Source: a candidate division CPR2 bacterium GW2011_GWC2_39_35 (GTDB lineage: Bacteria; Patescibacteriota; CPR2). From it: DNA of 64,000 nucleotides. The DNA lies in contig LBWX01000002.1 of the NCBI GenBank assembly GCA_000995065.1, positions 62,586 through 126,585 of the forward strand. Reading direction: 5' to 3'. Shown here one piece after another: positions 4,075-27,543 of this stretch (positions are counted from its first letter, which is position 1; the number at the start of each line of letters is the position of its first letter). The position numbers and the translations under genes were made by a program. The notes beneath the pieces were generated by a model, which saw only the letters and a list, made by a program, of their open reading frames with translations, was not told where the DNA came from and did no database searches.

Positions 4075-4298
4075 AGCTTACCCCTCCAGTTGTTGACTTA
4101 ATTGTAGGGCACTTAAGTATGCTTGCCAAGTAGATTATTGTCTTCAAATATATTATAGCCTAAATGTAATCCGAGCCAAATACCGCAAAGGCCTTTTTGG
4201 CTCCCAATTAAAAATGTGTTTAGACACTTGGATTGGAATCAAATAAGAGATGAATTTGAGGATTTTCATCGTTATAAACTAGCGCTTGTAAACTTGAA

Positions 4299-5108: not shown

Positions 5109-5493
5109 ATAACTCCTACTTAGTTAATACCTATTTATCATAACAGTTAAGATAATTATTAGGCAATAGAAAGGCATTTTGGCCTTTAACCAGGGGATCA
5201 GATTCAAACTTTTTAGATAACAAAAAATGGCTCTTTAAAGCCATTATCTTGTGGTTGGAATTAAGTCTTATCCGGTTCTATAAATTATTCAAACCGTTAT
5301 TTTAGCGTTTGCAGAGCCTTAATTACCATATTCTTCCATATTGGCTCCCCACTATGGTTCAGTACCATTTTTTGGCTAGTCTTAGCCTTAAAACAGAAGA
5401 TTGGCCTGCATATCAAGCGAAAATGAGACACTATAAAAAAGAGATGTCTTGTGTCTCATTAACTACCTAAAATATAGGTATCTTTAGTTAGAT

Positions 5494-5543
5494 CTCTAAA
5501 AAACAAGAAGGGTAGACATGTGCTTTTGGCACGGGTCTACCCG
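5494..5543 (-). terminator. putative rho-independent terminator for the minus-strand gene 5596..5928
   Basis: GGGTAGAC at 5510-5517 pairs with GTCTACCC at 5535-5542. On the minus strand the hairpin is followed by a T-run. Confidence 0.4.
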
Positions 5544-5595
5544 TAAATTGTAAATTCATATTTGTTTGGATTTCTTGCCTTGATTGCAGCCGATC

Positions 5596-5928
5596 CTAGA
5601 ATATGATTGGGAACATTCTCCTGTCCTCAACCTTTTGGGTCTTAATATCCCGAACAGCAATCTCGCAATCCAAGGTATATTCTTGAAGATCGTCAGCAGT
5701 TACCGCAGGAACAAGTATCATAAGATTATAATCTTGATTTGCCCCCTCAGACTGGCCTTCATACCTCAATACAAGCTCCTGGATTTGCCGGTTGAGTTGT
5801 TTAATATCAGTTCTGGGATCTTCAACTGCTTTCTGAAGAATTGATGTCACTTCTTTCTGAAAATCTAAGAATGGCCTTGCTAGACCTTCCCATCTTGGAT
5901 CCCCATCCATATTTATGTCTGTAGACAA
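5596..5928 (-). CDS. hypothetical protein
   Basis: A 110-aa ORF in a locally GC-richer patch. Confidence 0.4.
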   Translation of the reverse strand: MSTDINMDGDPRWEGLARPFLDFQKEVTSILQKAVEDPRTDIKQLNRQIQELVLRYEGQSEGANQDYNLMILVPAVTADDLQEYTLDCEIAVRDIKTQKVEDRRMFPIIF

Positions 5929-5963
5929 AATACCACCTTCTTCCTTTAGACATTATTGGATGA

Positions 5964-6839
5964 TTACCAGACGAATGATCCCTGCCATTTATCAGGCTCT
6001 TCGGTTAAGCGACGAATGATCTCCGGCAGGATGACGTCTCGCATGCCGAGAGCGTACGGCTTACGGCCGTTGATCTCGGTCATGATAGTTATCTTCTGGT
6101 CTTCTCCTACGAGAGTGAACTTGTGATACGCATGGCCATCAAGATGCTCCGGCGGAACACCCCACATTCCCCCTTGGACCGAAGGGTCACGCTCTGAATA
6201 GAGCACAGCACTTGTATCGGCACCAGCTCGGTCAAAAATGTCGATTACCTGTTTGGCCGTTCCCGAAGGATCCTTCTTTTTTGCTTGATGAGTTTCACCA
6301 GGAAGGAACCTAAGGCCAGTAAAGGCATTGGGGCTTTCCTGAGGAATAGTGCTTAAGGCTTTTAGAATGGCAGCAATTGCTGCGGCTCCGTTAGTAACAC
6401 GAGAAACAGTGAAATTATCATCCTTGTGTTCTTCGGCAAGAGCTGTAAGATCTTTCTCGTTCTCCGGATTCTTGAGTCCGATTGTACCCATGATGATAGT
6501 TGGCAAGCCGACCAGTACCGAAGCATAAAACTCCGCAACATCAGCTTGTCGTATGGTTGTGCAATCAACGACTAAAAAGCTACCCAGTTCCTCTTTATCT
6601 TGGAGTAGTTTTTCCGCGAATGCCGGTGAACCGAATGTGTAGGCCTCCATCTCGATGTGCCCACCGCGACCCTGATCCATGTAGCCTTCGAAATTGACTC
6701 CTAAAGATGTATTAGAGGTCGTGTAGGGAAGAACGTTGTAGCGCCCTTCTTTGTCACCAAGCAACGCCCAAGCTACTTGCTTTCCGAGATTGCCGTCTGC
6801 TCCAGCAATAAGTACGTGTGTCTTTTCCTTCGAAATCAT
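5964..6839 (-). CDS. DapB-family (4-hydroxy-tetrahydrodipicolinate reductase-like) NAD(P)-binding protein
   Basis: N-terminal Rossmann motif VLIAGADGNLGKQV and the DapB hallmark E-x-H-x-x-K-K-D-P-S-G-T-A (GETHQAKKKDPSGTAKQV). Confidence 0.55.
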   Translation of the reverse strand: MISKEKTHVLIAGADGNLGKQVAWALLGDKEGRYNVLPYTTSNTSLGVNFEGYMDQGRGGHIEMEAYTFGSPAFAEKLLQDKEELGSFLVVDCTTIRQADVAEFYASVLVGLPTIIMGTIGLKNPENEKDLTALAEEHKDDNFTVSRVTNGAAAIAAILKALSTIPQESPNAFTGLRFLPGETHQAKKKDPSGTAKQVIDIFDRAGADTSAVLYSERDPSVQGGMWGVPPEHLDGHAYHKFTLVGEDQKITIMTEINGRKPYALGMRDVILPEIIRRLTEEPDKWQGSFVW

Positions 6840-6890
6840 ACTTTTAGCCCCTTTCGTCTATTCTCTTGTTCCGGTGAAGCCAGGCTTACT

Positions 6891-7178
6891 CTATAGCCAC
6901 CCCCAGTCAACCATCGCCTGTTCGAATTCCTGCTCTGTGAGAAGTTGGACTTCTCTGATTGCACAACCTTCTTTCAACTTGTGTCCTGATAACGGTGTTT
7001 CTTTGACCCCGACCATTTGGGATTCGATGTCTTCGAAATGAATCGTTTTTACGAAGACTTGGCCCCAATATGATTGGTCTCGGTGCTTGGGAGCGTCTAC
7101 CTCGGATTGAGGTACTACCAAATGTTGTCCAAGGTGCCGTCCTTCTTCGATGCAAATCAACAATGCTGATTTAATCAT
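6891..7178 (-). CDS. hypothetical protein
   Basis: A 95-aa ORF that runs in the same direction as the upstream DapB-like gene. Confidence 0.3.
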   Translation of the reverse strand: MIKSALLICIEEGRHLGQHLVVPQSEVDAPKHRDQSYWGQVFVKTIHFEDIESQMVGVKETPLSGHKLKEGCAIREVQLLTEQEFEQAMVDWGWL

Positions 7179-7284
7179 ATCTATCCTCCTTCAGATACAG
7201 TCTCATTCCAACCTTCGTGAGGGGTATTTTACCATATTAAAGGCTTTTTGTAAATGTTGAGCTCACAAGACGCGATAGGAAGGC

Positions 7285-7596
7285 TTGAGTGTGTGTTATA
7301 ATTCAAATATGGCTACTTTGGAAGAACTAGAAAAAGAAGTTCAAGAAATCGAGAAAAGAAATCAGAGAGTCGAAGCCGATAAGGCGTGGGAAATCAGTAG
7401 CTCTAGAAAAATAATTATCTCGATTTTTACCTACTTTTTTGTTGGCCTCTTTCTGTCTTCAGTTGGTATCCAAAGACCTTGGATAAGTGCTCTAATACCA
7501 GTAATTGGATTTGTTCTTTCAACCCTTACATTGCCTTATTTCAAGAATCTCTGGACTGAGCATTTTCTGGAAGGCAAAAATAAAGAGCTCAATTAG
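7285..7596 (+). CDS. small membrane protein; a paralog of the partial ORF at 63746..64000
   Basis: A coiled-coil N-terminus (EKRNQRVEADKAWE) followed by two TM segments. The 3' partial ORF shares the RVEADKAWE motif. Confidence 0.5.
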   Translation: MSVCYNSNMATLEELEKEVQEIEKRNQRVEADKAWEISSSRKIIISIFTYFFVGLFLSSVGIQRPWISALIPVIGFVLSTLTLPYFKNLWTEHFLEGKNKELN

Positions 7597-7620
7597 TCAA
7601 TTGAATAGTAGTTCAAGCTG

Positions 7621-8235
7621 TCAACAATCTTGAATAGAAAAAAAAGCAATTCTTATAGATAACGAATGTTCAATACATAATATTTTCTTATTAACCGCTC
7701 CTTCTAAGGGGATTGTGGAAACTGGAACAATCTCATCATAAATCCCTCTAATAGTTATCACTTTTTGCCTTTGCACTTTGGTTAGAGATGGCTCAATTTT
7801 CTCAAATGTAAGAACAGATTCCTTAAAAGCCAGGCTCTTTCTGGCTACCTGTTCAAGAGATGGTCTTACGTTTTGGCCAGCCCTAAGCCTGCCGCAAATA
7901 TTAATTACCTTCGAAATATTATCACTCCTCTTTGCAAAAGCGTTTAAAGCAACACTGCCACCAGCACTTGATCCAATCAAGCCAACCTTATTATCACCAG
8001 TTGCTAAATCATCAATCAATTTAATCAGCTTTTGAAGCTTTTTATCAAAAGATTCATTATCTTGCCATCCCATCTTAAAAAAATGCAAAGTGATACCTTT
8101 TCTTTTGCAATAAAAAGCAAAGAAACGATAAGCTAAAGTTTTATTATCGTTATCTTTAAGGCCGGGGATAAAAATTATATGGTGATTAACAGATGAATTA
8201 GTTTGCATGACCTTATTATACCGGAAAGTAAGCAT
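7621..8235 (-). CDS. alpha/beta hydrolase-fold protein
   Basis: A G-x-S-x-G nucleophile elbow (GLIGSSAGGSVA) in an alpha/beta-like layout. Confidence 0.5.
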   Translation of the reverse strand: MLTFRYNKVMQTNSSVNHHIIFIPGLKDNDNKTLAYRFFAFYCKRKGITLHFFKMGWQDNESFDKKLQKLIKLIDDLATGDNKVGLIGSSAGGSVALNAFAKRSDNISKVINICGRLRAGQNVRPSLEQVARKSLAFKESVLTFEKIEPSLTKVQRQKVITIRGIYDEIVPVSTIPLEGAVNKKILCIEHSLSIRIAFFSIQDC

Positions 8236-8298
8236 GCTTGATGATAAATACTTAAAAGTTAGCCCTAAAGATATTTTTGAGTTTTAGCTTTAAAATTA

Positions 8299-9171
8299 CT
8301 AAGAAAAAACCCTTAACGAAATTACCCCAGCTACAACAATGGCGATAGCCAAATACTGATTAAAAGTCAGTCTTTCCTTGTGCACGATAGCACCATAAAC
8401 GGTAGCTACTATAGGATTTGAAGAATAAAGGGCCAGAATAATGGCGGGGTTTCCGTTCTTTAAACCATAATACAAACCCACTGTGGCAACCGTAACTAAG
8501 GCGATTGCTATTACTATGCTTACTGAAGTTCTAATTTCTGGTAATGTAATTTTTTTCTTTCTATATAGAAGGACAAAAGAACCAACAAGAAAAGAGCCGC
8601 TTTCAAAAGTTATTGGTGCAAGAATTGGTCCTAAAGTCCTCGTTGGGATTTGAGAGGCAAAAAGGAAAATACCCATAAGAACACCGGATATCAGAGCATA
8701 ATTTAGACTGGTTTTGTCATTCTTTGTTAGATGATCCCTTAATGCTTTTGGATCAAGTCTAATTAAGACTACCCCCGCCACTATAGCCGAAATAGCTATT
8801 ATTTGAACAACTGATAACTTTACTCCAAGAAAAACTGTGGTTAAAAGAATGGCAAAAACTACATTCACCGAGGAAACAGGACTTACCAAGCCAATCTTAC
8901 CGATATTTAATCCTCGATAAAGAAAATTTAAAGCAAAATAACCGATTAAAGTTAAAGAAAGCCCAAAAAGAATTTGGGTCAAATCAAAATGATATTCAAA
9001 TAAGCCAACAAAAAAGATACCTGTTAAAAATAGCACACAAAGGAAAGTGCGTATGACCATATACTGGTCTACCCCGACCTTGGCAGTAATATTCTTTGTC
9101 ATGGAATTGGCAATTCCTAGCGAGACCATTACTATAAGGCCAAGAAAAATGCTTAAAGTGATTATATCCAT
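8299..9171 (-). CDS. DMT/EamA family transporter
   Basis: A 290-aa protein with about 10 TM helices in the two-EamA-domain architecture. Confidence 0.7.
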   Translation of the reverse strand: MDIITLSIFLGLIVMVSLGIANSMTKNITAKVGVDQYMVIRTFLCVLFLTGIFFVGLFEYHFDLTQILFGLSLTLIGYFALNFLYRGLNIGKIGLVSPVSSVNVVFAILLTTVFLGVKLSVVQIIAISAIVAGVVLIRLDPKALRDHLTKNDKTSLNYALISGVLMGIFLFASQIPTRTLGPILAPITFESGSFLVGSFVLLYRKKKITLPEIRTSVSIVIAIALVTVATVGLYYGLKNGNPAIILALYSSNPIVATVYGAIVHKERLTFNQYLAIAIVVAGVISLRVFS

Positions 9172-9230
9172 AAAGACATAATAGCAATCTACCGCTTTAA
9201 TTAAAGCCTTTTTTGTAGTATGATAATCCC

Positions 9231-10118
9231 ATGAAAATACCTACGAAAAAACTAAAAAATGGTTTCGAATTACCAGTCTATGGGCTAGGCCTTTGGGAGG
9301 TTGGTGGTCGTTTAGAATCGGATATCAGCAAAGACAGCGAAGAAATTAAAGGGATACAAGCCAACCTTGATTCCGGAGTTACTCACATTGATACGGCAGA
9401 ACTTTATGGAAATGGGCATGCAGAAGAACTCTTGGGACAAGCAATCAGAGGATTTGATCGCGAGGAATTATTTATTGCCAGCAAAGTCGGCCATGATGGA
9501 AAATTATCTTACGATAGAGTACGCAAATCATTTGAGGCAAGTTTAAAACGAATTGGCACGGATTATCTCGATCTTTACTATTTACATCTTTACCCGAAAC
9601 ATGGATATTCTATTGAAGAAACGATGAAAGCTATGAACGAATTAAAAGATCAGGGCTTAATAAAGAATATCGGTCTTTCTAATGTTACGCCAAACCGATT
9701 CAAAGAAGCTCAAAAATATTCTGATCACAAGATTGTCTGCAACCAGGTGCATTATAATCTCCAATACCGAGAAGTCGAGGACAAAAAAGTTTTATCCTTT
9801 TGCCAAGATAATGATGTAATGTTAGTAGCTTGGCGACCACTACAAAAAGGATTGCTTCCAGAATCAGATTTAATATTAAAAATTGCCAAAAAATATGAAA
9901 AAACACCAGCTCAGATTGCCCTTAACTGGCTCATTTCTCAAGATAGCGTTGTTACTATAGTAAAAACAAGCAATGTTGATCACTTAAAAGAAAATCTTGG
10001 CGCAGTTGATTGGACGATGGAAAAAGAAGATATAGCAAGGATTAGAAAAGAATTCCCAAATCAAGAATTGGTTTCAGAGGCTATTCCGCTAGATTACGAA
10101 GGCGAAATAGCACCATAG
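9231..10118 (+). CDS. aldo/keto reductase
   Basis: AKR signatures are present (GLGLWEVGG, IDTAELYGNGHAEELLGQ, DLYYLHL) at a typical AKR length. Confidence 0.85.
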   Translation: MKIPTKKLKNGFELPVYGLGLWEVGGRLESDISKDSEEIKGIQANLDSGVTHIDTAELYGNGHAEELLGQAIRGFDREELFIASKVGHDGKLSYDRVRKSFEASLKRIGTDYLDLYYLHLYPKHGYSIEETMKAMNELKDQGLIKNIGLSNVTPNRFKEAQKYSDHKIVCNQVHYNLQYREVEDKKVLSFCQDNDVMLVAWRPLQKGLLPESDLILKIAKKYEKTPAQIALNWLISQDSVVTIVKTSNVDHLKENLGAVDWTMEKEDIARIRKEFPNQELVSEAIPLDYEGEIAP

Positions 10119-10140
10119 ATTAACACAAGACCAGATATCA

Positions 10141-10175
10141 AGAAAGAACGTTTAAACGTTCTTTCTTCTTCTTAT
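10141..10175 (+). terminator. rho-independent terminator of the AKR gene
   Basis: AGAAAGAACG-TTTAAA-CGTTCTTTCT hairpin followed by TCTTCTT. Confidence 0.55.
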
Positions 10176-10217
10176 ATCTGACGACTGACGGAGGTCGGTC
10201 GCCAGGAACATCACACA

Positions 10218-10279
10218 TTGGCTCCCCGGATTCGCACTCATTCAATATTCTGGAAGAACTTGCCAGTTTGATTGCTTAA
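10218..10279 (+). repeat. composite intergenic repeat, partial copy containing the TTGGCTCCCCGGAT module
   Basis: TTGGCTCCCCGGATTCGCACTCATTCAATATTCTGGAAGAACTTGCCAGTTTGATTGCTTA is nearly identical to 11667-11729. Confidence 0.7.
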
Positions 10280-10418
10280 TTGAACCGCTATGAGCCACTA
10301 TTTAACCAATAAGACCAGTTAGCGAAGTTGGAGGAATATTTTAAATGGCTTTCCGCAATATAAAAAGACCCTTTTAGGCAACCTACAAATGAGTAGGCGG
10401 GGTCTTGTACCTTTACTT

Positions 10419-10817
10419 CTAATGATCAGCTTCTGCCAAAATAACTTCAGATAAACCAAGCTCGTATTTGGCATTTAGCTCCCTAAGAGATATAGGCGAT
10501 TCCAAATCTTGTACTAGTTGATCGAGCTGTTCTACCTCCACCATTGTTATAGATTCTGCTGCTGTCTTTTTGTTCTCCTCGGAAAGATGAGAATAGAATG
10601 TCGAGATCAGATATTCTGCACCCTTTGGTTCATTTGGTAAAGCATTATCGCCATCAGGAAGTTGTAAGTATGGAATTTGAATGCGATCTTCTTCTTGCTT
10701 CTTAAATCGAAGTGCCATGCGATCGGCAATCCGATCCCAAACAGGTTTTTCGTCCGGCGTTAATACCGTTAGTGTCCCACCAGGAATAAATCGACTTTCA
10801 CTCATTTGTTTCACCAC
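10419..10817 (-). CDS. hypothetical protein
   Basis: A 132-aa acidic ORF. Confidence 0.4.
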   Translation of the reverse strand: MVKQMSESRFIPGGTLTVLTPDEKPVWDRIADRMALRFKKQEEDRIQIPYLQLPDGDNALPNEPKGAEYLISTFYSHLSEENKKTAAESITMVEVEQLDQLVQDLESPISLRELNAKYELGLSEVILAEADH

Positions 10818-10877
10818 CTTTCTGGCTCAGGAATATGTGGACTAATCTATCGTTATTTGTTCACCTTCTTTCCCTAA

Positions 10878-11408
10878 CTAGAGGTCGAAATGCGTATAAT
10901 CATTAGCCCTGACTATCCGTGTAGACGCTTCGCATAGCTTATCCCTAGGGCCACCACAGTTCATACACCCTTTACCATCACAAGGAGCTTCTTTAAGAGG
11001 TTTTTCGCAGCCATAACAGAAACAAACCTTGCCTTTGTGCTCTGGTTGAATATAGTTGTTGTGACAGATTATCGGAGACTGACAAAGCAGAATACTATAA
11101 CTCGGCGACTGCTCGAGAAAATAGCATGCTTGCTTAAAGGGTACTGGACAGATATCGCGACAGATCGGATCAGCTTCACGGCGTTGCTTTGCGATGAAAC
11201 GAATATTGCACTTGCAGACATGACAACTCTTCACATGATCTAGGTATGGCCTGACTGCTTTTTTAAGGCTGACGACACCATAAGGCACTTTTTCCAATTC
11301 ATCTCTTGGAACGTGCTTATCAGCGTCAGGATCGATGGTGAGCGGCTTAAAAGGTTGACCTAAAAGCTCCTTGGCATATTTATTCCAAACTTTAGACACA
11401 AAAATCAC
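10878..11408 (-). CDS. cysteine-rich hypothetical protein with about 14 Cys, a putative metal-binding protein
   Basis: Many cysteines arranged in clusters (CHVCKC, CRDICP, CFCYGC, CDGKGCMNCGG). Confidence 0.45.
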   Translation of the reverse strand: MIFVSKVWNKYAKELLGQPFKPLTIDPDADKHVPRDELEKVPYGVVSLKKAVRPYLDHVKSCHVCKCNIRFIAKQRREADPICRDICPVPFKQACYFLEQSPSYSILLCQSPIICHNNYIQPEHKGKVCFCYGCEKPLKEAPCDGKGCMNCGGPRDKLCEASTRIVRANDYTHFDL

Positions 11409-11532
11409 TCCTTCGATAAAGGTTTTTTTAACTTTATATAGAGCCTTAGAGGCGTTGGTGGATTGTAAATGTACGGGTTATACGGGATGAATCCAGAGGA
11501 TTGTCGCTTGAATTATATAACAAAGGGCTAAT

Positions 11533-11729
11533 TTTTCAATGATTTTGGGGAAACCAGGGGGTTGGATTCAAACCTTTCCAAAAAACAAAAATGGCTCGTT
11601 AAAGCCATTGTCTTGCAGTTTGAATAACGCCTAACCCAGGGTTATTAATGTTTTTAGTTGGAATCCTATTGGCTCCCCGGATTCGCACTCATTCAATATT
11701 CTGGAAGAGCTTGCCAGTTTGATTGCTTA
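11533..11729 (+). repeat. composite intergenic repeat, full copy of subtype A
   Basis: About 150 nt are identical to 13615-13760: TTCAATGATTTTGGGG, GGATTCAAACC, the hairpin AATGGCTCGTTAAAGCCATT and TTGGCTCCCCGGAT. The right end matches 10218-10279. Confidence 0.75.
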
Positions 11730-11768
11730 GACTTCTAAGACTGTTGTTGCCAAAAGTAATCGCAGGTC

Positions 11769-12143
11769 ATGCCTTATAAATCAGCGATTCTTATTATTGA
11801 CAAAAATTGTCCAAGAATCTATTATACGTTCATGAACGAAGCAGATAAAAAAGCAATTGAAGAACTCCTAAATAAACAAACAGAGCGCTTTAATCAAGCA
11901 ATGGATATCCGTTTTCAAGAGCAGGAAGAGCATCTTGAAAAGCGTATGGTAGGTATTTTTAATGAAGGCTTTGAACAGATTGTATTGCCTCATATCGCAA
12001 CATTAAGCGAAAAAGTAGATAGTCTGGATTCGAATACAGAAAGAATCGATAGAAAGCTTAATGCCATAGTCGATCGCCAAGACAACCAAGGAAAAGAAAT
12101 CCAAGGCATCAAAACGTTTGTTCAAATGCCGGAAATTGCATAA
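11769..12143 (+). CDS. hypothetical coiled-coil protein
   Basis: A 124-aa ORF. The true start may be an internal Met (MNEADKK). Confidence 0.35.
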   Translation: MPYKSAILIIDKNCPRIYYTFMNEADKKAIEELLNKQTERFNQAMDIRFQEQEEHLEKRMVGIFNEGFEQIVLPHIATLSEKVDSLDSNTERIDRKLNAIVDRQDNQGKEIQGIKTFVQMPEIA

Positions 12144-12371
12144 AACTATATTGAAAAATGAATGTTTTTAATGGCACTTAAAAGTGCCATTTTTGAATAG
12201 ATTGTTCCTGGTTTTTAGAGTAGTCGTAATTAAATATCTTTGCCTAAATATAAAAAAGGACTTCGTAAAACACATTTTAAAAATGTATAAGACAAAATCC
12301 TCTTAGCTTTAAGGACTCGGTCCATCGCCGAATCTCTTTTATAAAAAACGGTACTATAATGCTATGAAAGT

Positions 12372-13181
12372 TTATCTAAGCAAGGTTTCTTTTTTTTGAT
12401 ACTGATCTTGGTCCGCAATTTCGATAAGTAGCTTCTGGGCAATCAGACAATACCTATAATCCTCAGTCTCAATTTTTTTGTCTTCTTCCAGCTTTTGCAT
12501 ATTAAAGATCAAAGGGCACTCTACGGCTCTTAGTGGCAACGAAGGTGCTAATGAGCCTGAAGGCTCATATAACTTACGCAGGTCATGAAGATAGAGAATA
12601 AATTGCTCAGCACTAATATTGGGAATGTCCTTGATAACTGGCAAAACTCTTTCTTCGTAAATATCTTTAAGCCGTTCCTTGCTAGCAAACAAAGTCGATT
12701 TTTCAATCGCTTTTCCGCTAAACCCTTCTTCAGTCTCCTTTATCTCTGTTGCAAAAAGCGGCTTTTCTTGAAAATCAGTTAGAGCTATATGATTTAAAAT
12801 TAATCTTGATAGCTCAAAAAGGTTATCACTTCCAACTGGTTGATTGCCTAAATTTTGCATATCCAGAGCTAGAATGATTTCTACTCCTCTTAAAAATTCG
12901 ATACCCCCGTTAGCTTCAATTTTTTGGCTCAACAATTGGAGCTCTTTTGGATAACTTTCTGCGCCAAGAGTAATTCGTTCTTTGGCAAATGGAAGAAGCA
13001 CTTCGTTTAAAAAAACACGAGCTCCATTTTTATTGCATCTACAATTAAAATCCACTCTGTGTTCAATTTCATAACCTTCCGGCGTTTCTTCTATATGAGC
13101 TCTCATTTCTAATTCCTTCCGTGGTGAGGTCTGGTCATTAACAAAACCCAAGTTAAGATTACAAGGATTGATTGTCAGCAT
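12372..13181 (-). CDS. hypothetical protein, co-directional with and overlapping the ACP-like gene
   Basis: A 269-aa ORF that overlaps the upstream ACP-like ORF by 23 nt. The true start may be the internal MRAHIEE. Confidence 0.45.
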   Translation of the reverse strand: MLTINPCNLNLGFVNDQTSPRKELEMRAHIEETPEGYEIEHRVDFNCRCNKNGARVFLNEVLLPFAKERITLGAESYPKELQLLSQKIEANGGIEFLRGVEIILALDMQNLGNQPVGSDNLFELSRLILNHIALTDFQEKPLFATEIKETEEGFSGKAIEKSTLFASKERLKDIYEERVLPVIKDIPNISAEQFILYLHDLRKLYEPSGSLAPSLPLRAVECPLIFNMQKLEEDKKIETEDYRYCLIAQKLLIEIADQDQYQKKETLLR

Positions 13182-13470
13182 TGGCCATAGCCTGATTCGC
13201 TGCCTCTATTAAAGATATTGGCGTTGGATACTTATCGATTGCGTCTGCTATCCTAGAAGGAATGGCGCCCACCTCAATATCCTCAATGTTGAGGGATTCT
13301 TCTAGAGACATTATAATCTCCACAATATCTAGATTATCCAATCCAAGATCCCAAAAACTAGAATCGTTTTCTAAGGATTCTATGTCTTCCTCTTTAAGTC
13401 CAGGGACTTCTCTTAGGACACCTACAAGAGCACTCGAAACTCTGTTATCCAAATCAATTAACCGAGACAT
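13159..13470 (-). CDS. acyl-carrier-protein-like domain protein with Asn in place of the phosphopantetheine-attachment Ser
   Basis: SSFWDLGLDNLDIVEIIMSLEESLNIEDIE aligns with the canonical ACP segment [26 protein letters not shown], with the Ser of DSL replaced by Asn. Confidence 0.55.
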   Translation of the reverse strand: MSRLIDLDNRVSSALVGVLREVPGLKEEDIESLENDSSFWDLGLDNLDIVEIIMSLEESLNIEDIEVGAIPSRIADAIDKYPTPISLIEAANQAMANADNQSL

Positions 13471-13614
13471 TCCTTTTCCTCCTTTTAGATACGGTGAGCA
13501 TATTTAGACACCTATAAGTAAACTTCTTGGAAGCATAAATGAGTTGGTAACGTGCAAACTTAATAAGAATTGACTAGCGGATTGACGCTTGCAGTATATA
13601 TTAATTAGGCAATT

Positions 13615-13818
13615 ATTCAATGATTTTGGGCGAAACCAGGGGGTTGGATTCAAACCTTTCCAAAAAACAAAAATGGCTCGTTAAAGCCATTGTCTTGCAG
13701 TTTGAATAACGCCTAACCCAGGGTTATTAATTTTGGTTTGAATCCTATTGGCTCCCCGGATCGGACTATCTTCGAACTTTTGGAGTATTTGTGCCTGTGT
13801 GCTAGTGCTTAATACTAA
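13615..13818 (+). repeat. composite intergenic repeat, full copy of subtype A with a subtype-B right end
   Basis: Near-identical to 11533-11680. It then continues TTGGCTCCCCGGATCGGACTATCTTCGAACTTTTGGAG...GCTTAATACTA, as in the copies at 15479, 17714 and 19539. Confidence 0.75.
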
Positions 13819-13891
13819 TATAAAAAAACAAAAGCGGTCGCCAAATATTTCTGACGACCGCAAACGGTCTTCCATTCAATGATGCTATTTG

Positions 13892-15160
13892 CTATATACC
13901 CGTTAAGGCAATATCGGTGCGATAGCACATGTCTGGAAATTTGATCTTACTAACTGCTTCATACGCTCTTTCTCTGGCCTCACCAAAGTCCTTTCCAAGA
14001 GCACTCACATTGAGCACGCGTCCACCTGCTATATGGAATTCGCCATCTTTGATTGTTGTTCCGGCATGATAGATAGTAACACCTTCGATTCTGGATGCAT
14101 CATCAATACCCTGGATTTCCAGCTCGGGATAGTGATCCGTGCCTGGATAACCACCAGAAGCTATAACTACTGAAGCACAAACTTCTGGTTTCCATTTGAG
14201 CTTTACTCCTGAAAGATCGCCTTCCACTACGGCAAGCATAGGCTCCATGATATCGCTTTCGAGCCGCGGTATGATTGCTTGAGTTTCAGGATCACCGAAG
14301 CGACAATTAAACTCGATGACCTTAGGCCCATCTTCAGTAATCATGAGTCCGGCGTAGATGATCCCTTTGTAGGTCATACCTTCTTTTGCCATGGCTGTAA
14401 TGGTCGGCTTTAAGATGGACTCGATAATCTCCTCATAAAGCTCTGGCGTTACCTTTGGCACTGGTGAGTATGAACCCATGCCTCCGGTATTAGGACTGTT
14501 CTTTTCGGTGTCCAGACGTTTGTAGTCTTGAGCAGGAACCAAGGGTAAAATATTCCTACCATCTGAGAAGGCCAGCATTGAAAGCTCCCAGCCTTCTAGA
14601 CATTCCTCAATAAGAACAAGGTCATGAGGATTGATGTATTCTGACTTGGAAAAGCCTCTTCTAACCGCCGCCTCAGCTTCCTTGAGGTCACTTGTGACAA
14701 CTACACCCTTTCCTCCAGCTAAACCATCAACCTTAACTACATACGGTGGGGGCATCTTCTTTAGGAAGTCAATAGCATGATGGTATTCTGCAAATAGAGA
14801 GCTTTCACCAGTAGGAATACCGTAACGTTTCATAATGGTCTTGGCATAGTTCTTGCTACCTTCAAGCATGGCAGCGCCAGGTCCTGGACCAAACATCTTT
14901 TGGCTCCGGTAATCGAAATATCCTCCGATTCCGAGTACAAGCGGAACTTCAGGCCCCACTACGGTTAGTCCAACTCTGTTTCGCTTCGCAAAACGAACTA
15001 GCCGGGAGCAATCAGCGGCTGCAATATCAACATTGTGTGCAATTTCTCTAGTGCCACCATTGCCTGGAGCTACAAATACTTCACTTACTTCAGGCGATTC
15101 CAGGATTTTCTTGGTTAAAGCATGTTCTCTTCCGCCGCTACCAACAACTAATACTCGCAT
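13892..15160 (-). CDS. purD: phosphoribosylamine--glycine ligase
   Basis: MRVLVVGSGGREHAL at the N-terminus, ATP-grasp motifs, and a 422-aa length typical of PurD. Confidence 0.9.
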   Translation of the reverse strand: MRVLVVGSGGREHALTKKILESPEVSEVFVAPGNGGTREIAHNVDIAAADCSRLVRFAKRNRVGLTVVGPEVPLVLGIGGYFDYRSQKMFGPGPGAAMLEGSKNYAKTIMKRYGIPTGESSLFAEYHHAIDFLKKMPPPYVVKVDGLAGGKGVVVTSDLKEAEAAVRRGFSKSEYINPHDLVLIEECLEGWELSMLAFSDGRNILPLVPAQDYKRLDTEKNSPNTGGMGSYSPVPKVTPELYEEIIESILKPTITAMAKEGMTYKGIIYAGLMITEDGPKVIEFNCRFGDPETQAIIPRLESDIMEPMLAVVEGDLSGVKLKWKPEVCASVVIASGGYPGTDHYPELEIQGIDDASRIEGVTIYHAGTTIKDGEFHIAGGRVLNVSALGKDFGEARERAYEAVSKIKFPDMCYRTDIALTGI

Positions 15161-15270
15161 GGTTTCTCTCCTTCTATTCTAATAAACGTTTTTTGGAATA
15201 AAGTATAAATAAGCTTCCTAGGAAGCATTAATTGGTTGGGAATGTGCATGAATAGCAAGAAATATTTGAG

Positions 15271-15545
15271 GAATTGACGCTTGCACTATACAATAAAGGG
15301 CTGTTTTTTCAATGATTTTTGACCCCGGATCGGACTATCTTCGAACCAAAAAAATGGCTCGTAAAAGCCATTCTAGATAAATTAAGTTATTTATTTGTGC
15401 AAATCTCGGAAATTATTCGAACTTTTATTTTAGCTCTACAAAGCCCTAAAACGGCTTAATTTCCAGTTTCTGCCACATTGGCTCCCCGGATCGGGCAATC
15501 TTCGAACTTTTGGAGCGGTTGTGCCTTTACGCATCTGCTTAAGCT
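15271..15545 (+). repeat. composite intergenic repeat, subtype B (about 270 bp) with two tRNA-end-like modules
   Basis: Contains TTGACGCTTGCACTATA, TTCAATGATTTT, GACCCCGGATCGGACTATCTTCGAACC, the hairpin AATGGCTCGTAAAAGCCATT and TTGGCTCCCCGGATCGGGCAATCTTCGAAC. It is a homolog of 19375-19620. Confidence 0.75.
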
Positions 15546-16550
15546 TATTGCTTCTTCTTTTTTACAACCTTTTTCTTTGCTATCTGAGCAGCCGAGAGTG
15601 CCGCTGTGTCAAAATCAGTGTCTAGACTTTTTGCTTCGTTTTTCTTGTACTCATCAAAATGCTTTTCCGCTGTTTCTACTGCTAATTCGTGCGATACTTT
15701 ACCAGCACTGGTTAAGATATCTCTGTCGTTTAGTTTTAAGAAGCCATGTAGTTTTTCTATCCAATCCTTCATATACATTGGCACGCGTCGCATAGCCTGG
15801 CCTTCAGCAAACACAAGATATTGCTCGACAAGGTTGTTAAGGGCAAGAAGTTCCGGCTCTGTCAAATAGTTTTTAGCAATCGTCACATCGTCTTTGCGAG
15901 GCTTCGTCCCCCGCCATGAAGTAAGTCCCATATATGGCCTTGTGCTATCGGCACGAGAACTTATAATCTCGGATGCAGTTTGACCGGTAATGGCGTAGTG
16001 GACTTTGTTTTGGACTGTTTTAAAAAACAGAATACTTGTTTCATCGGTCGGATCATAGTCAACGCTGGTCGCATAGATATCGGTGATCTTTCTGTAAAAG
16101 CGCTTTTCGGAAGTGCGTATATCCTGAATACGGAGAAGTAATTCTTCGAAATAGTCAAAGGGTAGATCTGGATTTTTAAGACGTTCATCGTCTAGCACAA
16201 AACCCTTTACGATATATTCACTTAAACGGGCAGTCGCCCATTGACGAAAAGCTGTTGCAATAGAGCTTTTAACACGATAGCCAACGGAGATGATGAGATC
16301 GCTCATTTTGAACTATTCGGAATTTCCGAATAGTTGAATCTTTGCTCAATTCTCCTTCTTGATAAATGTTCTTTATGTGTTCGTTAATGGTTGGAACGGT
16401 AACCTGAAAAAGCTCGGCCAAGAGTTTTTGCGTAAGCCAAACCGTTTCGCCGTCAAAACGGACATCGATTTTAGTTTGACCGTCTTCGGATTTATAAATG
16501 ATTAGTTGTGAGTTAGGATCATTTTTCATAATGGTAAATTCGCTTTGCAT
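15545..16550 (-). pseudogene. RhuM-family (virulence RhuM-like) gene split by a frameshift into 93-aa and 253-aa ORFs
   Basis: The N-terminal ORF (IIYKSEDGQTKIDVRFDGETVWLTQKLLAELFQ) and the C-terminal ORF (ISVGYRVKS...GFVLDDERLKNPD) together cover a RhuM-like protein. The two ORFs overlap at 16269-16306 in different frames. Confidence 0.6.
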
Positions 16551-16765
16551 TACTTTGCGCCCTCATTATACACCAGGCGTGCGTGGGCTAAAATGGTATT
16601 TTGTCGCGTTGGTCTTTTCCGGATAAAACATCATTCTTAGATTCGTATTTTTTGAAATATTTAGAGCCATTATGCTTATGTGGTGCCTAATAGATTCCTT
16701 TTGTCATTGACCGACTTATAATGGTTTAGTAAGTTGGTACTATAACAGCATAGCAAGAGGTCCAT

Positions 16766-17623
16766 ATGAAAAGCAAATCACGCCGTTATGAAATTATAAG
16801 GGAGATTGCAGTAACTACTCTGTGGTCAATCCTTGCAGGCATTCTAGGATTGTTTGTGGTGATGCTGATCGGCCTTCTGGTATTTAAAACCAAGAGGCTC
16901 CCACCCGAATCAACGTTTGTCTTTTTTGTAACCGTGTGGCTAGTTGTCTATTTAAGACTCAAAAAGAGCGGTAAAACCTTTGCAGATATAGGCCTTGGGG
17001 AAAAGGGGCTTTTTAGTCGCTCAACAATAGGTTTGCTTATCGGCGCCGGATTCATGACGGCTACCTTCGCCTTTCTTCTTTCCATAAAAGCCGTTACTTT
17101 TACAGAACACACAATTAGCTCTTCCTTAGCTATAATTCTTGTTTCAGGCCTTGCCTATAGCATGATTCAAGCTAGTGTTGAAGAAGTGTTATTTAGGGGC
17201 TATTTCTTAAATATCCTGGCCTGGAAGAATCGCCTATCAGCGATTCTTGTAACCTCTGCCTTATTTTCCTTCCTTCACTTCTGGCATGGTGTTCATCTTA
17301 TCGGCTGGCTCAACATATTCCTTTTCGGGGTGTTTGCTGCTCAATCATTTTATTTATTCAAGAGCTTGTGGGTGCCTATAGGTTTCCATATCGGTTGGAA
17401 TTACTTCCAGAAATATGTCTTCACCTTTCCGATTTATGGAAGCGATAACACAAGAGGACTGCTTGCTCTAAACGATGCAAACAAGGGTTTATTGAGTGGC
17501 GGTAGTTTTGGTCCAGAAGGAAGCATAATCATAACTCTATTGTTAGTAATGACTATTGGGCTAATTTATTGGCGACAAAAAGAAACATTAATTGCGGTAA
17601 ATCCTCGGCTTGCTCAAAACTAG
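16766..17623 (+). CDS. CPBP-family intramembrane metalloprotease (CAAX protease/Abi-like)
   Basis: EEVLFRGYFLN, FSFLHFWHG and downstream His motifs in a polytopic membrane protein. Confidence 0.8.
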   Translation: MKSKSRRYEIIREIAVTTLWSILAGILGLFVVMLIGLLVFKTKRLPPESTFVFFVTVWLVVYLRLKKSGKTFADIGLGEKGLFSRSTIGLLIGAGFMTATFAFLLSIKAVTFTEHTISSSLAIILVSGLAYSMIQASVEEVLFRGYFLNILAWKNRLSAILVTSALFSFLHFWHGVHLIGWLNIFLFGVFAAQSFYLFKSLWVPIGFHIGWNYFQKYVFTFPIYGSDNTRGLLALNDANKGLLSGGSFGPEGSIIITLLLVMTIGLIYWRQKETLIAVNPRLAQN

Positions 17624-17660
17624 CCCATTACTGTACCCTATAACCGTAGGGAGACATCAC

Positions 17661-17689
17661 AAAATGCCTTTACAGAAGGCATTTTTATG
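17661..17689 (+). terminator. rho-independent terminator of the CPBP gene
   Basis: AAAATGCCTT-tacaga-AGGCATTTT hairpin followed by TAT. Confidence 0.5.
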
Positions 17690-17713
17690 GGTTGATTGAT
17701 GCGTCGAAAAACA

Positions 17714-17790
17714 CTGGCTCCCCGGATCGGGCAATCTTCGAACTTCTGGAGCAATTATGCTTATGTGCTAGTGCCTAATAATTTGCATTT
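17714..17790 (+). repeat. composite intergenic repeat, partial copy (TTGGCTCCCCGGATCGGGCAATCTTCGAAC module)
   Basis: CTGGCTCCCCGGATCGGGCAATCTTCGAACTTCTGGAGCAATTATGC...GCCTAATAAT matches the right half of subtype B. Confidence 0.7.
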
Positions 17791-17801
17791 TTTAAGTAGC
17801 C

Positions 17802-19235
17802 TTAGGGGATAAGATTATTGATGATCTTCTCCCCTAAGAATGAATAAATGCTTCCCTCTTTGTTGAAATCTATAGAATTATCGGCTACTAGTTCTGCAAG
17901 TGTCTGTCCAACTGCTACTTCCCATGGCTTAGAGCTTCCAGTGATGCCCACTAAATCGTTCCTAATGCTTTTAATATCATAATTCATCCGGTCAAAATCA
18001 CTTTCTTTAAACCCGGACATCACCAAGAAATTAGGGTGTGCTGTGTTAACATCGAGCCAATGTTCAATACCAGCCTGAAGCGCAGCCCAATCCATTCCAA
18101 GCTTACTCAGAACCTCATCAGTTAAGAGCAAATTTTCAGCATTTCTACATGATAGCTTCAACCGTACTACGGGCAGAATGTCATCTATCGTCCCATCGCT
18201 ATCATCTCGATCTCTTAACGAATAGGCCGTTGCATTGTCATAAACGGCTTGAATAATGTTCTTAGCTTCTTGTTCATAATCGTTCAGTTCACTAATCCCA
18301 CCAGTAGGGCAAGGATATACCTTGACTCTTCCATTTGATGACCGAACCGCTTGCTGCCATATACGCTCATCGTCTTCGCCCTCGACTAATAGCAATGGGG
18401 CTTCATTAAAAATGTTCGATAATGGATGTGCTCCAAAAACCGGCAGAATGCTTCTGTATACAGGAGTAATTGGTTTAAATTCTAAGCAGGTTTGCCCTGA
18501 CTTCATGAATGCGATATGAGCGTTATGTTGAGACTCTAGAGCCCCTAAAATTGCTGTACTATGTGTTGACAACACAATCTTAAATGCATTTTCTTCAACC
18601 AAATTTATAAGAAAATGCATTAGACGTACTTGCAAGTCTGGATGTAAATGAACGTCGGGCTCGTCAAGAAATAACATATTGTCTTTGTTCGGCACACATT
18701 CTTTGCTGAAAACTAAGCATTCGATACCTAAAGAGATTAATTCACTTTCCCCGCTACTAATCATCCCGGCATTAAGTTCTGTGTCATCTCCCTTTTGATA
18801 GATTTTAAAAGTGGTATCATCTCTCGCAATCCTGATATTATCAAGCAAGTCATTGATTTTATCTACATAAAGGTCAAATGTATAAGCATGATCGCTTCTT
18901 TTGCCTCTCTCTATCTCTCTTAATATCAACGTTTCCAACTTCCTGTACTGCACTACGCTTTGCTGTCTGAATTGGTTATATTGATTATTTCTACGGGTAT
19001 CGGGTAGCCATGAGGGGCTATCTGTTAAATTTTGTTCAATACCGGCTTCATAAATTAAGGATCCGCCTCGTTCGGGCGTTATATATTTAGCTTTACCAAA
19101 AGCAGGATTATTCGAAAGAAGGTTCTGCTCTACTGTTCTTATTAGCCTGCTCTTGCCACATCCATTTTTGCCGAGAACAATGTTAACGTTATTTAGATTT
19201 ATTAAGCTGTAACCACTGATATTAATAATTTCCAT
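17802..19235 (-). CDS. OLD-family ATP-dependent endonuclease (N-terminal ABC-like ATPase plus C-terminal TOPRIM), class-1-like and stand-alone
   Basis: Walker A (GKNGCGKSRL), Walker B plus H-loop (LFLDEPDVHLHPD...LSTHS), and a C-terminal TOPRIM-like LLLVEGEDDE. Confidence 0.75.
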   Translation of the reverse strand: MEIINISGYSLINLNNVNIVLGKNGCGKSRLIRTVEQNLLSNNPAFGKAKYITPERGGSLIYEAGIEQNLTDSPSWLPDTRRNNQYNQFRQQSVVQYRKLETLILREIERGKRSDHAYTFDLYVDKINDLLDNIRIARDDTTFKIYQKGDDTELNAGMISSGESELISLGIECLVFSKECVPNKDNMLFLDEPDVHLHPDLQVRLMHFLINLVEENAFKIVLSTHSTAILGALESQHNAHIAFMKSGQTCLEFKPITPVYRSILPVFGAHPLSNIFNEAPLLLVEGEDDERIWQQAVRSSNGRVKVYPCPTGGISELNDYEQEAKNIIQAVYDNATAYSLRDRDDSDGTIDDILPVVRLKLSCRNAENLLLTDEVLSKLGMDWAALQAGIEHWLDVNTAHPNFLVMSGFKESDFDRMNYDIKSIRNDLVGITGSSKPWEVAVGQTLAELVADNSIDFNKEGSIYSFLGEKIINNLIP

Positions 19236-19374
19236 AATTTCTCCATATTACTTGACTGTTTCGTCATCATCTAGTCCCTTGACTTAATCGTTATCTAAGA
19301 CATGTTCATTATACAGCAAACAGTTGTTCGATTATAGTTTAACAAAGCGGTTATGGACAAACGCTATATTAGCC

Positions 19375-19620
19375 AAATTTCAATGATTTTAGACCCCGGA
19401 TCGGTCAATCTTCGAACCAAAAAAATGGCTGTTCAGAGCCATTATCGATAAATTGGGTTATTTTTGGTCCAATCTTTTCCAAAAATTCGAACCGATATTT
19501 TAGCTCTACAGAGCCCTAAAACAGGCTAATTTACAGATTCTACCATATTGGCTCCCCGGATCGGGCAATCTTCGAACTTTTGGAGCGTTTGTGCTTATAT
19601 GCCAGCGCTTAATACTAAAT
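19375..19620 (+). repeat. composite intergenic repeat, full copy of subtype B
   Basis: Contains TTCAATGATTTTAGACCCCGGATCGGTCAATCTTCGAACC, the hairpin AATGGCTGTTCAGAGCCATT and TTGGCTCCCCGGATCGGGCAATCTTCGAACTTTTGGAGCG...GCTTAATACTA. Confidence 0.75.
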
Positions 19621-19625
19621 AAGAA

Positions 19626-20666
19626 CTAAGGTTTTTCAACCCTATCAATCATAAACTTAACTGTTTCATTCATATTGATTGGCTTTATAACAATATCCGG
19701 ATGTTTTGATTGAAACACTCTAAATATTTCATCAGCAAATGCCTGACCGATTGTAGGCACTTTGTCGAAGTCTAAAATTATAACCTTAAATTTTGACAAA
19801 TTTACCGTTACTCTTCTGGCCTGCGACCTTGAAACATAAATAGTACCCATGGCATATAGTTTGATTCTGATTTCTGTCTTATCAAAAGCCATTTCTTCCG
19901 AATCCGTTTGATATTTAGCAAAAACATCGCTGAGATGTTTCCCTGATTCGACTGAAATAGTAAACGTTACCCTAGTTCCTTTTTTGGCAGGCTTTATATC
20001 TTCGACAAAAACATCATTTATTAGATTATCTATTCTTAGCCGATATTCAAAACTATCCAAAACAAAGATATCTGCCGCTTTTGAAGTAAAAAAGATACCC
20101 TCGCCCGAATGAGCTTGAGGCGCCGTTGTTGTTTTGCCTTTTAAAAGATCCTGAATTGCTTCCAGTTCGGATTTTAAGCCTCTCTTTTTCATAATGTTTC
20201 TAAAAACCCCAATGCCAGAGTCCGAGATGGTAAACTTTAAATTATTATTCTCTTTAATAACTTCTATGTCGATTTCTGAAGACAGGGAATGCTCAATTGC
20301 ATTATTAAGCATCTCTGAAAACGCGAAAGTAAAGATGCTTAAAACATTCTCGGTTAGCTTGCCCAGGAAAGGCGTTTGTTTTTGGATTCGATCTAAAATC
20401 TCATGTTCCTGCAAATTAACATTTTTAAGTCTGATGTGGGTTCTATTTCTTAAAAGATCCGCATCCCGAGGAAGCGCATATTCGGTAAAACGACCGCCTC
20501 CAGAACGAATGAGTTCACCCTTTTGGACCAAGTCCTTTAATATCGAGGTAATATATTGCCTAGAAACCTCTATGTCTAAATTCGCTAAAATATCAGAAAG
20601 ACCAAGTTTTCCTTTTACATGTGCGACATTAAATATTGTTTGTGTCACTTTTTTCTTAATATCCAT
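19626..20666 (-). CDS. wHTH plus GHKL (histidine-kinase-like) ATPase plus C-terminal STAS-like (DUF4325-type) domain protein
   Basis: A winged-helix-like N-terminus, GHKL motifs (NNAIEH, DSGIG, GEG) and a C-terminal STAS-like fold (VIILDFDKV...). Confidence 0.55.
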   Translation of the reverse strand: MDIKKKVTQTIFNVAHVKGKLGLSDILANLDIEVSRQYITSILKDLVQKGELIRSGGGRFTEYALPRDADLLRNRTHIRLKNVNLQEHEILDRIQKQTPFLGKLTENVLSIFTFAFSEMLNNAIEHSLSSEIDIEVIKENNNLKFTISDSGIGVFRNIMKKRGLKSELEAIQDLLKGKTTTAPQAHSGEGIFFTSKAADIFVLDSFEYRLRIDNLINDVFVEDIKPAKKGTRVTFTISVESGKHLSDVFAKYQTDSEEMAFDKTEIRIKLYAMGTIYVSRSQARRVTVNLSKFKVIILDFDKVPTIGQAFADEIFRVFQSKHPDIVIKPINMNETVKFMIDRVEKP

Positions 20667-20703
20667 ATGAATCCTTCTTATTGTACGACTATTATAGTAT
20701 AAC

Positions 20704-20756
20704 GTAAACTCAATGTAAACAACAATATTTTCAATGTAAACTCAATGTAAACTGAG
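20704..20756. promoter_or_regulatory. CAATGTAAAC direct repeats (3-4 copies) upstream of the HTH-GHKL-STAS gene, putative operator iterons
   Basis: AAACTCAATGTAAAC...TTCAATGTAAACTCAATGTAAACTGA lies immediately upstream of the gene start at 20666. Confidence 0.45.
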
Positions 20757-20772
20757 GTTTTTTAGAGAAGTA

Positions 20773-20822
20773 AGGATCGAACTTTTGGAGCAGTTGTGCC
20801 TTTATGCAACTGCTTAATATAT
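20773..20822 (+). repeat. composite intergenic repeat, partial right-end copy
   Basis: GGATCGAACTTTTGGAGCAGTTGTGCCTTTATGCAACTGCTTAATATA matches the right ends of the subtype-B copies. Confidence 0.6.
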
Positions 20823-20935
20823 TATAGCCAAAGCCCTCTTTAAAAGAAACGTCCCCAGTATCAATAAATCAATACTGGGGACAGCCCCGCAAACCCTTAT
20901 GATGTTTTCTACCGCAGAAGGATGGAAGCGACCGA

Positions 20936-27538: not shown

Positions 27539-27543
27539 GTAAT

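Follow-up and report, generated by a model that had tools for sequence, protein, structure and literature searches.

An acyl carrier protein homologue with asparagine at the phosphopantetheine site in a CPR2 bacterium: a candidate apo, protein-binding member of the family

What use might a cell have for an acyl carrier protein (ACP) that has lost the one residue by which it carries anything? The question is raised by a small gene in a 64,000-nucleotide (nt) stretch of contig LBWX01000002.1 (this whole stretch is called the window here), from the candidate division CPR2 bacterium GW2011_GWC2_39_35, an uncultivated groundwater member of the candidate phyla radiation (CPR). The gene encodes a protein of 103 amino acids (aa), which we call the ACP-like protein, and is followed on the same strand by a gene for a protein of probably 244 aa, which we call the partner. 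To judge from its alignments, the ACP-like protein is a real ACP homologue that should be unable to carry acyl groups via the canonical site. As to what it does instead, the reading that we favour, though we would put it at somewhat under an even chance, is that it is a permanently apo, non-carrier ACP that works by binding other proteins, with the 244-aa protein as its likeliest partner.

Membership in the family is supported by several models. The Pfam PP-binding model (PF00550) matches residues 14-63 at 24.7 bits, above its gathering score of 20.8 (E 2.8e-5), and ten NCBIfam ACP models match the protein, the top one being TIGR00517 (E 2.5e-8), whose equivalog cut-off of 70.45 bits is not reached by the 33.7 bits obtained. 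In the PDB, 112 distinct sequences matched at E<=1; the 60 of them that were listed consist entirely of ACPs and mitochondrial ACP subunits. Identity to real ACPs is 29-36%, with 36% over 72 aa for E. coli AcpP (tblastn), and matches in PHROGs are to generic phage ACP families only. The protein is strongly acidic: it has a pI of 4.05, and its 22 acidic residues compare with 6 basic ones. In a MAFFT alignment with ACPs it has an 8-aa extension at its N-terminus and a 6-aa insertion after helix II, while the C-terminal helix region is complete and aligns over the remainder of the ACP.

Phosphopantetheinyl transferases (PPTases) of the AcpS and Sfp types modify a serine at the N-terminus of helix II, and it is this residue that is missing. 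Helix II of the ACP-like protein aligns with ACPs without gaps (dlgldNldiveiimslee against DLGxDSLDxVE in HMMER; as an example, DLGLDNLDIVEIIMSLEE against DLGLDSLDVVEVVMSLEQ of 8iuf, with the asparagine in the serine column). Because the alignment is ungapped, Asn46 (by hand count, within G43 L44 D45 N46 L47 D48) stands exactly at the pantetheinylated position of the DSL motif. HMMER and MAFFT alignments with ACPs place no serine within two positions of it; of the 11 serines in the protein, S37 and S38 lie in the loop preceding helix II. Because transferases of these types need that serine, pantetheinylation at the canonical site would not be expected. A preliminary description, made from the letters alone, had already proposed an ACP-like protein with asparagine for the DSL serine and hence no 4'-phosphopantetheine arm, and had pointed to a serine shifted by one position as one observation that would speak against it. 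The above-threshold Pfam match, the ungapped helix and the ACPs among the PDB matches bear out the likeness and the substitution, no such shifted serine is present, and the loss of the arm at the canonical site would follow from the absent serine together with established ACP and PPTase biochemistry. One could still imagine a carrier modified at a non-canonical residue or bearing a different prosthetic group. With no serine close to the canonical site, with PPTases acting on the serine at the start of helix II, and with no PPTase gene in the window (which also holds no fab or plsX gene), we find this hardly credible.

The gene is not a product of misassembly, since several assemblies contain it, on a total of at least 20 contigs, the longest of about 0.5 Mb. 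These come from several groundwater samples, the encoded protein is identical on all of them, and every contig sampled has the asparagine variant; the sequence is also 100% identical to hypothetical protein UU65_C0002G0230 of CPR2 bacterium GW2011_GWC1_41_48. Beyond these copies, the ACP-like protein retrieved only itself when 5.8 billion sequences were searched by a word index.

Comparable substitutions do occur elsewhere. In 185,579 species genomes, the motif [DE]-L-G-x-D-N-[LIMV]-D-x-[VI]-E, sought at the level of the encoding DNA, occurs at 70 loci, at 3 of which an ACP profile scores strongly (40-60 bits) and at 24 marginally (8-17 bits, in the motif region). The three strong loci are a 77-aa open reading frame (ORF) adjoining rpiB-glyA-nrdR-ribD in a metagenome-assembled genome (MAG) of Pseudomonadota (L057), a 118-aa ORF that belongs to a row of divergent ACP-like ORFs in the MAG of a rumen proteobacterium (L062), and a 253-aa protein of Nostoc sp. 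B(2019) (L075, 1919-2680, minus strand), in which a long coiled-coil-like N-terminus is joined to a C-terminal ACP-like domain with asparagine. The row in the rumen MAG (3441-6933) starts with a canonical acpP and mltG, after which come four or five divergent ACP-like ORFs; at the serine position one of them has asparagine and one tryptophan (DLGFDWFD), and others have serine. A scan of viral contigs added a 75-aa protein with the motif ELGADNFD on two phage contigs (L089, 9546-9773, minus strand, where it is flanked by large ORFs of 382 and 469 aa, and L094). All of these share 19-36% identity with the ACP-like protein of the window, no closer than ordinary ACPs, and no homologue of the 244-aa partner lies near those of L057, L062, L075 and L089/L094. 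Loss of the serine in ACP-like genes thus appears to be rare, recurrent and independent, rather than the mark of a family of asparagine-bearing ACPs.

The features of the locus and of the neighbouring block are collected in Table 1.

Table 1. Positions in the window of the ACP-like gene, its signals, its flanking repeats and nearby genes
Feature	Coordinates	Strand	Basis or remark
ACP-like gene, 103 aa	13159-13470	-	ORF; Pfam, NCBIfam and PDB matches
AAT codon of Asn46, aligned with the Ser that is phosphopantetheinylated in the DSL motif	13333-13335	-	HMMER and MAFFT alignments
Shine-Dalgarno GGAGG, 7 nt before the ACP-like ATG	13478-13482	-	read from sequence
Sigma-70-like promoter candidate TTGAAT-16-TATACT, ~120 nt upstream of the ACP-like ATG	13593-13620	-	consensus scan
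purD intrinsic terminator, strong, 12-bp stem and T-run	13834-13861	-	terminator scan
Partner gene, 244 aa from the probable start Met26	12372-13106	-	homologue P0003 start and AAGGA; longest ORF to 13181 = 269 aa
124-aa coiled-coil-like ORF, convergent, inside the same repeat-bounded unit as the ACP-like gene	11769-12143	+	ORF
Upstream composite intergenic repeat	13576-13814	+	repeat search, alignment
Downstream composite intergenic repeat, direct copy of the upstream one	11495-11729	+	repeat search, alignment
AriA/PtuA/Gabija-like AAA ATPase	17802-19235		
HATPase and STAS-like DUF4325 protein	19626-20666		
SocA/Panacea	22382-22834		
Type III restriction-modification system	25442-29922		in low-GC segment (31-35%)
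Large serine recombinase, end overlaps tRNA-Asn	29919-31427		low-GC segment (31-35%)

Are the two genes one transcription unit? On the minus strand, the purD terminator (13861-13834) separates purD from the transcription unit of the ACP-like gene, and is followed by a terminator-like hairpin (13691-13672) and then by the promoter-like site (13620-13593). The latter agrees with the consensus at 9 of 12 positions, and such sites are no commoner in the region than in shuffled sequence; these terminator and promoter calls rest on matches to sequence patterns and do not show that transcription occurs. The terminator scan predicts no minus-strand terminator between the ACP-like and partner genes. 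An operon had been proposed from an apparent overlap of the two genes, which amounts to 23 nt when the longest ORFs are taken (13159-13470 and 12372-13181, minus strand). We regard this overlap as a longest-ORF artefact, because the alignment with the homologue P0003, described below, begins at residue 26 of the partner (MRAH against MRAE) and an AAGGA stands 7 nt before the corresponding ATG. The partner gene therefore probably starts at Met26, with its ATG at 13106, 52 nt after the ACP-like stop codon. Given how AT-rich the genome is, the 25 open codons before Met26 are ordinary; with the homologue also starting at this methionine, we have rejected a frameshift fusion of the two ORFs. Although the overlap is doubtful, the shared strand, the close spacing, the lack of a predicted terminator between the genes and the promoter-like site upstream keep co-transcription plausible. 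The convergent 124-aa ORF in the same unit has only sub-threshold matches in Pfam and NCBIfam, and is called as 103 or 124 aa in other assemblies.

The partner, first described as a 269-aa protein of unknown function, is an acidic protein (pI 5.0) formed by tandem duplication, its halves matching each other at E 1e-4 with 30% identity (blastp), and an AlphaFold2 model built from a two-sequence alignment shows two units of a beta-hairpin and four helices (predicted local distance difference test score, pLDDT, 78; predicted template modelling score, pTM, 0.58). No family in Pfam, NCBIfam, PADLOC or PHROG matches it, and a Foldseek comparison of the model with the PDB and BFVD gave no match below E 0.1; searches of PDB sequences with partner profiles retrieved nothing of relevance. 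A tblastn search of 50,697 phage records gave no match. A 269-aa ORF at 4299-5108 of the window, considered as a possible paralogue, has no similarity to the partner. Among 1.84 billion cluster representatives, searched exhaustively with HMMER, there is a single homologue, P0003, a 245-aa protein of CPR2 bacterium GW2011_GWC1_39_9 with 34% identity (E 2.8e-35).

The surroundings of this homologue are different. In all six P0003 loci a fusion of radical S-adenosylmethionine (SAM) and methyltransferase domains lies upstream, and downstream come a protein of 150 (or 134) aa, a receiver domain and a further protein of 233-237 aa; in one of them (L011) the fusion is a 619-aa radical SAM and class I SAM methyltransferase protein (7753-9612) directly upstream of P0003, and the downstream response regulator consists of a receiver only. 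The 150- or 134-aa gene was considered as a hidden ACP and rejected (about 0 bits with the profile hidden Markov model, no BLAST similarity), and synteny of the two partner loci was likewise discarded, tblastx finding that they share the partner gene only. The sole homologue of the partner thus sits in a different operon, without an ACP-like gene in the fetched locus, and by this comparison, which covers two genomes only and is weak evidence, the pairing is not conserved. The preliminary description had suggested a non-canonical role for the ACP fold, such as an interaction module, a decoy or a toxin/effector adaptor. That is a reasonable proposal, though two of its supports, the overlap of the genes and an implied specific pairing, are weaker than they were made to appear.

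Could the partner itself be derived from ACPs? Beyond the partner and P0003, the exhaustive HMMER search gave five matches, and all five are tandem-ACP proteins of polyunsaturated fatty acid (PUFA) synthases or polyketide synthases (PKS), aligned with partner residues 75-136 (GGIEFLRGVEIILAL against LGIDSIKRVEI) at E 1e-5 to 6e-4. A PUFA-ACP profile gives the partner 22 bits, about its score for E. coli AcpP, and a profile-profile comparison with PUFA-type ACPs scores 20.2 (P 0.007), a value reached by none of 200 column shuffles. With an ACP homologue encoded next door, these results raise the prospect that the whole cassette is an ACP-fold system, in which the partner would consist of two degenerate ACP-derived domains (serine to phenylalanine in one and to proline in the other) and three pantetheine-free modules would assemble; this overlaps with the apo-ACP protein-binding reading. 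However, the HMMER E-values are inflated because repeats that are nearly identical were summed, and the PUFA profile was selected only once the matches were known. An independent AcpP-type profile scores 12.7, which 32 of 200 shuffles reach and which is not significant. The Pfam PP-binding model matches neither half of the partner, P0003 obtains -0.7 bits with the PUFA-ACP profile, no ACP is found among PDB sequence matches of the partner up to E 10, whether searched with profiles or as a single sequence, nor among the fold-search matches of its model, and the model has a helix where an ACP has its long loop. We consider this three-module arrangement improbable.

We return to the ACP-like protein as a non-carrier that binds proteins. 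On this reading it would be a diverged ACP of the AcpP type, in the style of type II fatty acid synthesis (FAS), locked in the apo state. The ACP layout and the acidic docking surface of helix II (D45, L47, D48, E51, E57 and E58) are retained, and the protein would be kept as a small acidic binding subunit or adaptor acting through the surface on which client enzymes dock. Its most probable binder would be the two-repeat helical protein encoded just downstream, and the unit would be a lineage-specific accessory cassette, with promoter-like and terminator elements of its own, in a variable and defence-rich region. Three steps of this reading are ones that we infer: the gene is expressed as a working protein, this protein works by binding others, and the 244-aa partner is one that it binds. 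Because helix II is near-consensus in a protein with only about one-third identity to ACPs overall and no close relative, the docking helix seems to have been under long purifying selection, which argues for selection on the docking surface and not for neutral decay. The acidic composition typical of ACPs, the intact ORF with its GGAGG, the promoter-like site, the lack of a predicted terminator ahead of the partner and the copies in at least 20 contigs also speak for this reading, as do the lack of fab and PPTase genes in the window and the recurrence of asparagine-bearing ACPs in contexts unrelated to FAS (a phage contig, the Nostoc fusion and the paralogue array). So do two points taken up below, the reported deficits of CPR bacteria in lipid and ACP synthesis and the precedent of an essential pantetheine-free ACP.

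Several observations count against such a role. All copies are identical and come from one population (the coding regions compared for the ratio of nonsynonymous to synonymous substitution rates do not differ in any assembly), so selection on the ACP-like gene is not measurable. The pairing with the partner is not conserved, tblastn detecting no ACP-like sequence in the fetched P0003 loci, and the partner matches no LYR, Complex1_LYR or other ACP-binding family or fold. A single-sequence AlphaFold2 model of the ACP-like protein has helices where they are expected and is poor (pLDDT 55), and was not used for fold comparison. Finally, the AAT codon of Asn46 is one G-to-A transition away from the serine codon AGT, and the change could be recent.

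This last point leads to a recently inactivated relic, that is, a gene in which a single mutation destroyed the serine, which is heading for loss, and whose neighbour is functionally unrelated. In addition to the one-step codon change, such a history would accommodate a singleton gene without a family of asparagine-bearing orthologues, an unconserved neighbour, the absence of fab and PPTase genes nearby, and the way in which the few other asparagine-bearing ACPs are scattered over unrelated contexts. However, the ORF, the ribosome-binding site and the near-consensus helix II have stayed intact in a protein that has diverged deeply from all known ACPs, and the asparagine variant is found in every sampled contig. 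A recent holo-ACP would also be unexpected in this lineage: CPR genomes are small, CPR bacteria are generally reported to be unable to make membrane lipids, those with homologues of type II FAS still lack ACP synthase, and FAS and ACP synthase are reported absent from CPR as a group (PMC7242380, at the level of the group). On balance we think a relic unlikely, though far from negligible.

A further alternative gives the same surface an antagonistic use. The protein would be an apo-ACP mimic that acts as inhibitor or decoy at ACP sites, be it in the bacterium on which this presumed episymbiont lives, in competing cells or in the course of a phage infection, and its neighbour would be a modulator or neutraliser in the style of toxin-antitoxin or effector-immunity pairs. 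The preserved docking residues of helix II fit this, as do the presence of an asparagine-bearing ACP on a phage contig and the proximity of the AriA/PtuA-like ATPase, the HATPase-DUF4325 protein, SocA/Panacea, RhuM, the type III restriction-modification system and the serine recombinase. Obligate apo-ACP (S39A) and accumulated apo-ACP do suppress the growth of E. coli (PMC4736557), and a passage of the same article, citing Keating et al. 1995, has apo-ACP inhibiting glycerol-3-phosphate acyltransferase in that organism. On the other hand, reading the sequence by eye reveals no signal peptide or secretion signal, neither protein matches a toxin, antitoxin or defence family in PADLOC or Pfam, the acidity of the partner is unlike that of typical toxins, and the gene pair is not conserved. 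An inhibitor or decoy therefore strikes us as rather improbable. Bolder still is a combination in which a FAS-less episymbiotic CPR bacterium would use the apo ACP and a partner of two ACP repeats as a scaffold or decoy against host enzymes, the whole moving as a repeat-flanked cassette; we regard this as speculation with little probability.

The cassette itself is suggested by the repeats at its borders. The preliminary description had the gene pair bounded by composite repeats; the repeats are real and flank the unit, but they are not particular to the pair, and the unit also contains the 124-aa ORF. The two flanking copies are 97% identical over a 110-nt core (11543-11652 and 13625-13734). 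A core sequence, TTGGCTCCCCGGAT, occurs in the same orientation at 10218, 11669, 13748, 15478, 17714 and 19548, and a hairpin, AAAAATGGCTCGTTAAAGCCATT, at 5223, 11587, 13669 and 15350. Read on the minus strand, each repeat of the family has a terminator-like hairpin and then a promoter-like site; in the upstream copy the hairpin at 13691-13672 is followed by a 17-mer resembling a tRNA 3' end (13656-13640) and by the promoter-like site. The repeats divide the region into units of one to three genes, comprising respectively two orphan ORFs, the ACP unit, purD, RhuM with an Rce1-like gene, and the AriA/PtuA-like ATPase. Both repeats flanking the ACP unit hold GGTTTGAATCCAACCCC, which matches the 3' end of the tRNA-Asn gene (31386-31460) except at 2 positions and has the same orientation; the 17-mer has 7 matches in the window against 0.05 expected, the other five being in tRNA genes or elsewhere. 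The repeat region folds better than shuffled sequence (z -3.3), and scans of the flanking intergenic regions for tRNAs and with Rfam found no RNA gene or family.

No integrase lies within the 2.08-kb unit, the sole recombinase of the window being the large serine recombinase 16 kb away, and no empty-site allele of the unit was found among the assemblies seen. In the metagenome and viral collections the repeat core occurs on the contig of this organism and on one other contig only (L087), where copies at 136-361, 2843-2906 and 3796-3830 divide membrane-protein and other ORFs and which has no other similarity to the window. From this arrangement, the 2.08-kb unit looks like a small cassette between repeats that are either att-like or duplicated regulatory elements, and the repeat family at 5100-19650 resembles a cassette array or the remnants of serial att sites. 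Other assemblies of the population (L001, L003) contain stretches of 35-41 nt that are missing from the window at 16301/16302, 13730/13731 and 11648. The first, at RhuM, shortens the ORF to 253 aa from 348 aa, and through the other two, each of the repeats beside the ACP unit loses a small hairpin together with a TTTATAAT segment; these differences may be either an assembly artefact or strain polymorphism.

The purD gene (13892-15160, minus strand) is complete, with GARS_N, GARS_A and GARS_C domains, and stands alone between two repeats, which is odd for a CPR genome; among the window ORFs scanned (most of those of at least 100-130 aa) there is no other purine-synthesis gene. Beyond the downstream repeat, an orphan ORF of 176 aa (10878-11408, minus strand) is very rich in cysteine, with several CxxC-like pairs and no family match, and shares a repeat-bounded unit of its own with an orphan of 132 aa. 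A defence and mobile block occupies 17802-31460. With dnaA at 39914, followed by dnaN and recF, the window is close to the replication origin, and farther on a type IV secretion-like cluster (46867-56737, minus strand) encodes a VirB4/TraC-like ATPase, a PrgI-family protein and two large proteins with type IV secretion system pilin domains.

If the ACP-like protein is functional, it would be a case of a bacterial ACP fold kept for a role other than acyl carriage, in a lineage reported to lack fatty acid synthesis. It would then parallel the pantetheine-free ACP of the malaria parasite, add to the evidence that the docking surface of ACPs is reusable, and open a way into one of the many orphan genes that CPR bacteria carry. 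For the present the gene belongs to a single lineage and shows no measurable selection, its neighbour is not conserved, and its practical value is modest.

Set against known systems, the ACP-like gene belongs within the well-known ACP superfamily and is not a new kind of system. It resembles the AcpP of type II FAS (PF00550, TIGR00517) in size class, acidity and the helix-II motif DLGxDxLDxVE..M.LEE, and departs from it in the asparagine, the N-terminal extension, the insertion after helix II and a score below the equivalog level, as well as in having no fab genes nearby and a host lineage reported to be without FAS and ACP synthase. Of the features of an integron-type or att-flanked cassette, the unit that holds it has direct repeats at both ends, with 17-mers like the 3' end of tRNA-Asn; no attC-like inverted repeats were found. 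The asparagine-bearing proteins from the two MAGs, Nostoc and the phage contigs have, like it, the D-N-[LF]-D replacement in a helix II that otherwise fits ACPs well, whereas their contexts differ from its own, and they look like independent events.

Two further comparisons concern ACPs that function, or at least fold and bind, without the arm. The engineered obligate apo-ACPs (such as S39A or S36 mutants) have likewise lost the attachment serine and kept the docking helix intact, and obligate apo-ACP folds, binds ACP clients and inhibits growth (PMC4736557). They are, however, laboratory mutants of a housekeeping ACP in cells that contain FAS, whereas the ACP-like gene is natural and highly diverged, and its organism is likely to hold few ACP clients. 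The second comparison is with the mitochondrial ACP of Plasmodium, which is pantetheine-free, essential, and binds Isd11-Nfs1 (PMC8547962). Like the apicomplexan mitochondrial ACP, the ACP-like protein would be an ACP homologue free of phosphopantetheine in a setting without FAS, a setting that we infer here from the CPR literature, and the protein-binding role established there is the one proposed here. The apicomplexan protein is eukaryotic, essential and conserved across its clade, with a known LYR-protein partner, whereas the ACP-like protein of the window is a bacterial singleton beside a neighbour without a match to LYR or any known family.

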